A stretch of 2,037 nucleotides of DNA from Escherichia coli (GTDB lineage Bacteria > Pseudomonadota > Gammaproteobacteria > Enterobacterales > Enterobacteriaceae), in the NCBI RefSeq assembly GCF_003334405.1, contig NZ_QOWM01000040.1; one strand, given 5' to 3'. The position numbers were made by a program, and so were the translations under genes. Numbering within the stretch: the first letter of the stretch is position 1; every line of letters begins with the position of its first letter. Shown here piece by piece: positions 1,653 to 2,037 of the stretch. The notes beneath the pieces are model-generated. The model searched no databases, had not been told where the DNA came from, and was given only the letters and a program-made list of their open reading frames with translations.

Positions 1653-1770
1653 CAGGGAAAGATCATCAAAAGTTCACTTTTTGCACTAAATAATTCGCAT
1701 TTTATGTTTAAAAATTGAGATATTCCTTATTACCTGAAGCTGTTTTTTATTGCTTATACATGATCAAATA

Positions 1771-1790
1771 CTCCTTACCTAATTAAGGAG
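1771..1790 (+). promoter_or_regulatory. Perfect 7-bp inverted repeat (CTCCTTA-cctaat-TAAGGAG) able to form an RNA hairpin sequestering the transposase Shine-Dalgarno sequence
   Basis: Seen directly: 1771-1777 ctcctta is the exact reverse complement of 1784-1790 taaggag, with a 6-nt loop. The 3' arm contains the SD AAGGAG (1785-1790), which lies 6 nt upstream of ATG 1797. Confidence 0.5.
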
Positions 1791-1796
1791 AACAAA

Positions 1797-2037
1797 ATGG
1801 AACTTAAAAAATTGATGGAACATATTTCTATTATCCCCGATTACAGACAAACCTGGAAAGTGGAACATAAATTATCGGATATTCTACTGTTGACTATTTG
1901 TGCCGTTATTTCTGGTGCAGAAGGTTGGGAAGATATAGAGGATTTTGGGGAAACACATCTCGATTTTTTGAAGCAATATGGTGATTTTGAAAATGGTATT
2001 CCTGTTCACGATACCATTGCCAGAGTTGTATCCTGTA
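1797..2037 (+). CDS. yhhI: ISAs1-family (H-repeat-associated) transposase, N-terminal 80 codons (3'-partial, runs off the window)
   Basis: AAGGAG SD at 1785-1790, ATG at 1797, and an open frame to the window end. The translation is [80 protein letters not shown], the conserved N-terminal region of H-repeat-associated proteins (YhhI, YdcC and YbfD in E. coli). The symbol is chosen from the RhsB-like context, since the paralogues are near-identical at this end. Confidence 0.85.

Follow-up and report, generated by a model that had tools for sequence, protein, structure and literature searches.

A hairpin lies directly before the start codon of the transposase gene yhhI in Escherichia coli, and its 3' arm is the Shine-Dalgarno (SD) sequence of that gene. 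The stretch of DNA in which we studied it (2,037 nt from NCBI RefSeq assembly GCF_003334405.1, contig NZ_QOWM01000040.1; referred to here as the window) ends within yhhI, which belongs to a copy of ISEc1, or H-rpt, an insertion sequence (IS) of the ISAs1 family. We consider it rather probable that, in ISs of the ISAs1 family, this hairpin acts in cis as a conserved RNA element and here shields yhhI from outside transcription. The structure dominates the thermodynamic ensemble of its region, its arms covary among the members of the family, and it keeps a conserved position relative to a promoter-like motif; from that motif we predict a start of the element's own transcript that would leave the 5' arm out.

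The 5' arm of the hairpin, CTCCTTA (1771-1777, plus strand), is an anti-SD sequence that sits between a -10-like hexamer and the predicted transcription start, and its placement relative to the motif is kept family-wide. It is followed on the same strand by the loop CCTAAT (1778-1783) and by the 3' arm, the SD TAAGGAG (1784-1790), which ends 6 nt before the start codon; a spacer, AACAAA, then leads to the ATG at 1797-1799. A preliminary description of the sequence had reported perfect complementarity of the two arms around a 6-nt loop, and this is exact to the base: the inverted-repeat search returns a 7-nt, 100% complementary repeat. The same description took the 3' arm to be the SD of the ATG at 1797, and this ATG is indeed the annotated yhhI start in RefSeq (label 'ISAs1-like element ISEc1 family transposase'), with an N-terminus that is kept in homologues. 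When positions 1760-1800 are folded, as had been proposed, both the minimum free energy structure and the centroid given by RNAfold are this hairpin, at -8.0 kcal/mol and with 73% of the ensemble (z = -2.94; one of 200 dinucleotide shuffles was as stable). The hairpin persists in a 161-nt context and in transcripts that start as far upstream as 1500.

As a single sequence, a hairpin of this kind is suggestive, being uncommon (about 2%) but not compelling alone. Among 51 control gene starts from K-12, one (yddE) has a perfect stem of at least 7 bp with its 3' arm reaching into the SD zone, and in two others the stem is 6 bp long; perfect inverted repeats of at least 7 bp with short spacing occur three times within the 2-kb window, the hairpin included. 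The Rfam 15 covariance models gave no match at E values up to 1 over the whole window on both strands. The hairpin is raised above chance because it is conserved and covaries across the ISAs1 family. Already within K-12, the intact copies yhhI and ydcC both have perfect arms, and ydcC differs only in the loop (C1780A). This loop position is a copy-specific marker, with C found in yhhI but A in both ydcC and ybfD. The truncated ybfD has the 5' arm CTTCTTA, in which the C-to-T change still pairs as G.U, and the pseudogenes ybfL and ybfQ carry the arm-breaking TAAGGTG together with a 1-nt deletion in the spacer.

The wider comparison covered the upstream regions of close relatives from Salmonella, Serratia, Dickeya and E. 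fergusonii, of plasmid-borne members with 31-51% protein identity (ISKpn31, ISAs1, ISAeme2, ISPa60, and Vibrio and Aeromonas elements), and of a further 80 ISAs1-family loci from a species-level genome collection. Almost every gammaproteobacterial member, as well as several of the distant elements, has a hairpin that ends a few nucleotides before the start codon, and, with differing arms, it spans 31-88% protein identity. The arms are CTCCT/AGGAG in Salmonella, Dickeya and ISKpn31; those of Serratia, TCCATT/AATGGA, represent two double-sided changes relative to E. coli. Other relatives pair CTCCC with GGGAG, CTTCC with GGAAG, CTGGCT with AGCCAG, CTGCTT with AAGCAG, GCCTTT with AAAGGC, CCTCCA with TGGAGG, or GCTCTTC with GGGGAGC, the last including two U.G pairs. 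ISAs1 itself carries GTCTCC/GGAGGC, ISPa60 has an 11-bp stem (GGCATCCTGAG/CTCAGGATGCC), and the arms of a Planctomycetota element are CTCCTGTGTA/TACACAGGAG. Loop length varies from 4 to 17 nt across the family.

Folding of the 48 nt that end at the start codon gave a mean z-score of -1.65 for 71 distinct sequences, compared with -0.41 for a coding-region control. In a partner-swap test, the 5' segment of each element was anchored on the GATC, which is not part of the structure, and its own downstream segment was compared with the segments of other elements. For 20 arm classes, own partners paired with a mean dG of -8.05 kcal/mol, a value not matched in any of 10,000 permutations. A plain MAFFT alignment of the leaders left the 3' arms unaligned, and a covariance model was therefore used instead, built from only nine members with 43-48% identity to YhhI. 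The model recovers positions 1759-1799 of the window. Searched against 176 kb, it gives 27 hits, of which 26 end at or a few nucleotides from a located transposase start codon; the remaining one (locus L070, 2918-2954) lies downstream of the transposase of that locus. Pairing extends to 89% of the cells in the resulting alignment, against 38-60% with slid partners, a percentage that is inflated by the fitting of the alignment to the model; the partner-swap test is free of this bias. Double-sided changes occur in five of the six stem pairs, and the covariation score is 0.354, compared with 0.147 in shuffles (0 of 500 reach 0.354) and at most 0.082 in slid controls. This strongly suggests that the pairing has been kept by selection across the ISAs1 family.

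Directly upstream of the 5' arm, the plus strand carries TGaTCAAAT (1761-1769), a promoter-like motif that reads as an extended -10, with TG at 1761-1762, the hexamer TCAAAT at 1764-1769 and a GATC at 1762-1765 that would occupy -14 to -11. The T-C-n-n-A-T positions of the hexamer are invariant in all 32 family members that could be anchored on the GATC, and in 23 of these relatives TTGAC(C/G) is found exactly 17 nt upstream of the motif. The combination TTGAC(C/G)-17 nt-TGnTCnnAT reads as a sigma-70 architecture, with a near-consensus -35, a 17-nt spacer and an extended -10. The 6 nt that follow the hexamer belong to the 5' arm, with a T-run coming next in most members, and because the arm fills this space, +1 is predicted to fall on the last base of the arm or on the first base of the loop.

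For the position of the start we relied on IS10. ISEc1 carries ATGATCAAAT at 1760-1769, identical to the -10 region of the IS10 promoter pIN (IS10 nt 65-74). The IS10 outer end used here (...CATATGATCAAATGGTTTCG..., with GATC at nt 67-70) matches R100 and other plasmids at 100%. RNA-OUT of IS10 is 69 nt long, ends at nt 47 and is complementary to RNA-IN over its first 35 nt, and a Dam site overlaps the pIN -10 (PMC5006887). These figures place the first nucleotide of RNA-OUT at nt 115 and that of RNA-IN at nt 81, so that RNA-IN begins 7 nt beyond TCAAAT (nt 69-74). The analogous position in ISEc1 is 1776-1777, and we predict that the element's own transposase mRNA starts at about 1776-1778 on the plus strand. 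If the -10 is read in the alternative register AATACT (1766-1771), the start is predicted at about 1777-1779, and with either register the native RNA would be without the anti-SD arm. The register TATACT/AATACT is unlikely, being 20 nt from the -35, yet it too would put the start within the 5' arm or behind it.

In most family members the loop opens with 3-5 T residues (CTCC(T/C)TTTT…), in place of which ISEc1 has CCTAAT. If +1 is where we predict it, the native mRNA of the family would open with a U-run directly before the SD. Such a run could act as an initial transcribed sequence or as a site for S1 or Hfq.

These features can be combined into a mechanism. Transcripts from outside, such as those of the rhsB-yhhH operon, or any that start upstream of 1771, would carry both arms; they would fold the 7-bp stem, bury TAAGGAG and be poorly translated. 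A scan of the window found no plus-strand terminator-like site between rhsB/yhhH and the IS, so that read-through is possible. The preliminary description had proposed that read-through RNA masks the SD, and partition-function folding agrees, with the SD about 98% paired for 5' ends from 1500 to 1771 (probability of being unpaired 0.02). The element's own weak promoter, with its putative -10 at the edge of the 5' arm, would produce an mRNA that begins at about 1776-1778, lacks the anti-SD arm and presents a free SD on a leader of ~20 nt. The earlier proposal that a start inside the stem frees the SD is supported as well: for 5' ends at 1774-1779 the SD is unpaired with a probability of about 0.5, and the placement of the native start there is a prediction from promoter geometry. 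Expression and end usage may in addition be linked to Dam methylation, through the GATC inside the -10 and another in the left terminal repeat.

Several points, besides the fitted alignment mentioned above, weigh against a role of the hairpin in shielding yhhI from outside transcription. At the conserved distance a -35 is missing throughout the ISEc1 clade (Escherichia, Salmonella, Serratia, Dickeya, Erwinia); the sequence at this position is TGTTTT (1741-1746) in ISEc1 and TATCCT or similar in the clade. The hexamer has C, not the usual A, at -11, and a simple promoter scan misses the motif. The promoter in this copy may be very weak or dead. The leader is about 144 nt long in the ISEc1 clade, compared with about 95 nt in most relatives, and a TTGAGA (1715-1720) found 43 nt from the -10-like hexamer may be a displaced -35, which would fit an ancestral promoter that was interrupted by an insertion of ~26 nt. 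The searchable parts of the E. coli transcription start data sets (Cappable-seq, PMC4782308; dRNA-seq, PMC4681348; ROSE, PMC10301672; SMRT-Cappable-seq, PMC6131387; Kim 2012, PMC3415461) give no experimental start for yhhI, ydcC or ybfD. A stem of -8 kcal/mol opposite a strong 7-nt SD may result in only moderate repression of translation. Finally, the 3' arms of some relatives (AGCCAG, AAGCAG, GACAG) are not SD-like, and selection on the hairpin may therefore have a reason beyond SD masking, such as a more general covering of the initiation region or a different function altogether.

The main alternative is that the hairpin is a constitutive attenuator of the IS200 type. The native start would then lie upstream of 1771, every transposase mRNA would carry the hairpin, and translation would be permanently damped; we regard this as possible but doubtful. 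Transcription could come from an undetected promoter in the 118-nt leader or could start at 1768-1771, and a hairpin at the 5' end may stabilize the mRNA. The missing -35 of the ISEc1 clade fits this alternative, as do its leader, about 50 nt longer than that of other members, and the family hairpins whose 3' arm does not resemble an SD; moreover, IS200 has such an SD-sequestering stem-loop in its native 5' untranslated region (UTR) (PMC4513863). However, the near-consensus -35 that 23 of 32 relatives have at 17 nt puts +1 where the 5' arm ends. The alternative -10 that would place the hairpin at the 5' end (TGTGAT, in the register TGTGAT/CATGAT that we rejected) would have a spacing of no more than about 13 nt to the conserved -35. 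In IS10, which shares the -10 sequence, transcription begins 7 nt past the hexamer, and the window scan found no convincing upstream promoter.

We consider it highly improbable that the inverted repeat acts on the minus strand, as the terminator or structural stem of a short RNA-OUT-like antisense RNA over the start codon and SD. IS10, IS30 and IS200 use antisense RNAs (PMC8450116; PMC5006887), and the minus strand has a promoter-like site within yhhI codons 12-21 (-35 TTTCCA at 1859-1854, an 18-nt gap, -10 GATAAT at 1835-1830) and a terminator-like site at 1790-1771, followed by TATTTGAT, that could delimit an antisense RNA of ~55 nt. Promoter-like matches in the window are, however, fewer than in shuffles (3 vs 7.5), and GATAAT corresponds to two Ile codons and is lost in three of seven ISEc1-like relatives (GATAAC, GATGAC, GATGAT); synonymous positions of the promoter-like site show no conservation. 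Behind the minus-strand stem, the wider family has TATATGATCA and no U-run, and the G.U pairs in ybfD and in one relative (locus L015) are readable only on the plus strand. Overall, 8 G.U against 6 A.C pairs were counted, most of them at the optional outer pair, and this count favoured neither strand clearly. We also rejected a terminator as such: on the plus strand the stem is not followed by a U-run, and the minus strand has only a marginal one, in ISEc1 only. We give just as little credence to the idea that the repeat has no function in RNA and reflects either an SD beside a pyrimidine-rich, promoter-proximal sequence or a DNA palindrome recognized by a dimeric protein (transposase or host factor). 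It is true that a 7-bp stem overlapping the SD is found in about 2% of control genes, that 5' arms of the CTCC type are common in the family and that several pairs vary little, so that two independently conserved motifs may be involved. Yet the arms change in concert to non-SD sequences with the pairing kept, swapped partners pair significantly worse, and loops of 4-17 nt are unfit for a protein site with fixed spacing.

The two GATC sites provide a further pattern. One overlaps the -10-like motif (1762-1765), and the other lies in the left terminal inverted repeat (IRL; GATC at 1661-1664). Across the ISAs1 family the two co-occur almost perfectly. Elements with the pair nearly always come from Enterobacterales, Vibrionales, Aeromonadales and Alteromonadales, in addition to Legionellales and a few unclassified metagenome-assembled genomes; the four orders named first possess Dam. 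Elements from Halomonas, cyanobacteria and Chloroflexi have no promoter GATC and carry CGCA or TCGCA at the position in the IRL, and one element from Planctomycetaceae (locus L088) carries a GATC in the promoter window but not in the IRL. The placement of the promoter GATC parallels that in the Dam-controlled transposase promoters of IS10, IS50 and IS903. This suggests Dam-coupled control of the element, although the pattern is confounded by phylogeny.

Among known systems, IS10 (Tn10) is close to ISEc1. The weak promoter of IS10 lies close to its outer end, as does the putative one of ISEc1; both carry the identical ATGATCAAAT with GATC at -14 to -11, and the native leader, short in IS10, is predicted to be short in ISEc1. 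Transcripts that enter from outside would be expected to pair an upstream segment with the ribosome-binding site (RBS), as Davis, Simons and Kleckner reportedly described for IS10 in 1985. The two elements belong to different families, IS4 for IS10 and ISAs1 for ISEc1. The anti-SD arm of ISEc1 fills the 6 nt that separate the putative -10 from the predicted +1, and its hairpin is compact and local, whereas the fold-back of IS10 is longer in range. A comparison of the yhhI 5' region found no conserved equivalent of RNA-OUT in ISEc1-like relatives. In IS50 (Tn5), outside transcripts reportedly pair with the translation initiation region while the native start lies downstream, and Dam sites reportedly occur in the promoter and at an end (work of Krebs and Reznikoff from 1986 and of Schulz and Reznikoff from 1991). 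The logic of IS50 is like that proposed for ISEc1, but sequences and geometry differ, and IS50 is said to make an inhibitor protein from a second start as well.

With an inverted repeat near the transposase-proximal end, one arm of which is the SD, ISEc1 resembles in structure the RBS-sequestering repeats of the IS10/IS50 type. IS200 offers a different comparison. In the 5' UTR of IS200 tnpA, a stem-loop directly covers a strong SD, and both 30S binding and transposition are limited by it, as determined by toeprinting and fusions (PMC4513863). This stem-loop is located inside the native 5' UTR (start at about nt 40) and acts constitutively, and a separate terminator hairpin blocks impinging transcription; in ISEc1, on the other hand, a transcript from the predicted native start would leave out the 5' arm.

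The window matches the 3' end of the RhsB locus of E. coli at 100% identity, and addition of 3,622,581 to a window coordinate gives the MG1655 genome coordinate (NC_000913.3). It begins with the C-terminal tip of rhsB (open reading frame 7-846), which is followed by yhhH (818-1201), whose start (818-846) overlaps the final rhsB codons. A sharp fall in G+C content occurs after the DPLGL motif near 340-355. A core with a tip and an adjacent immunity gene is the usual arrangement of Rhs loci, and rhsB/yhhH conforms to it. Downstream of this toxin-immunity pair lies yrhC (1306-1656), an orphan HEAT-repeat pseudogene with an internal stop at 1549-1551, whose 3' end is the left end of the IS and which was seemingly truncated by the ISEc1 insertion.

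The left terminal inverted repeat of the ISEc1 copy, CAGGGAAAGATCATCAAAAG (1653-1672, plus strand), was delimited by element-edge matches and by the divergence of paralogues. In megablast searches of 5,426 E. coli genomes, the other copies match a discrete 1291-bp unit whose left edge is at 1653 and which is common to thousands of E. coli loci. The K-12 paralogues ydcC, ybfL and ybfQ part from yhhI exactly upstream of CAGGG at 1653, and each of the four further ISEc1 copies in K-12 has different flanks. The ends of the unit are imperfect inverted repeats, the IRL being CAGGGAAAGATCATCAAAAG and the reverse complement of the right repeat (IRR) being CAGGGCAAGATTACGAAAG. Because the element begins at 1653, the whole hairpin belongs to the IS; it is located 118 nt from the left end and immediately precedes the start of the transposase gene. 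The 5' part of yhhI, an ISEc1 (ISAs1-family) DDE transposase gene according to RefSeq annotation, translation and the domains of homologues, occupies 1797-2037 on the plus strand and runs off the window; the complete protein has 378 aa, and homologues with 66-98% identity carry PF01609 (DDE_Tnp_1) and PF13808 (DDE_Tnp_1_assoc) in precomputed annotation. With its single DDE transposase, terminal inverted repeats and presence in several unrelated contexts, the element is an ISAs1-family IS (ISEc1/H-rpt).

Some other copies show further rearrangements. In K-12, ybfL sits nested inside ybfQ. In Salmonella enterica (AAKACA010000007.1; locus L003, 256-455), an ISAs1-like copy has inserted into another ISAs1-like element, 81% identical to it, within the leader. 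It interrupts the target element exactly 3' of the 5' arm, in the hairpin loop (…ATATGATCAAATATCTCCTG|CAGGGCAAG…). In two Salmonella genomes (loci L005 and L006), a tandem array of the heptamer GCTCAGT abuts the left end of the IS, ~100 nt left of position 456, and the number of repeats differs between the two.

Taken further, the ISAs1 family might be defined by a compact expression module of ~60 nt, made up of a Dam-methylatable extended -10, the anti-SD arm, a U-run at the start of the transcript and the SD arm, with the GATC of the left repeat tied to the same signal. We advance this only tentatively and think it unlikely in its full form. If it were true, the module would combine three inputs, namely hemimethylation after replication, the shutting out of external transcription and perhaps an initiation on the T-run that is sensitive to nucleotides, and the GATC in the left repeat would tie end usage to the same replication-coupled signal. 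An insertion of ~26-50 nt would then have removed the -35 in the ISEc1/H-rpt clade, and the copies at Rhs loci may be permanently silenced passengers.

The data support the presence in the ISAs1 family of what appears to be a classical device for protection from outside transcription, together with a probable Dam-sensitive promoter. Support from comparison is strong for the structure, and good though indirect for a start site within the stem. In the searchable literature we found no earlier account of the hairpin, or of transposase control, in H-rpt/ISAs1 elements. Elements of the family (H-rpt/ISEc1, IS1358, ISKpn31, ISAs1) occupy Rhs loci, O-antigen and capsule clusters, and plasmids with other mobile elements. 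The family thereby gains a concrete candidate control region that comprises promoter, Dam site, anti-SD arm and SD, and with the covariance model the start of the transposase gene can be located in new genomes. A covariation-backed example is also added to an IS protection device that has been experimentally documented for only a few ISs so far. For the copy studied here, masking of the SD in read-through RNA would explain how elements directly downstream of an operon such as rhsB could stay quiet.

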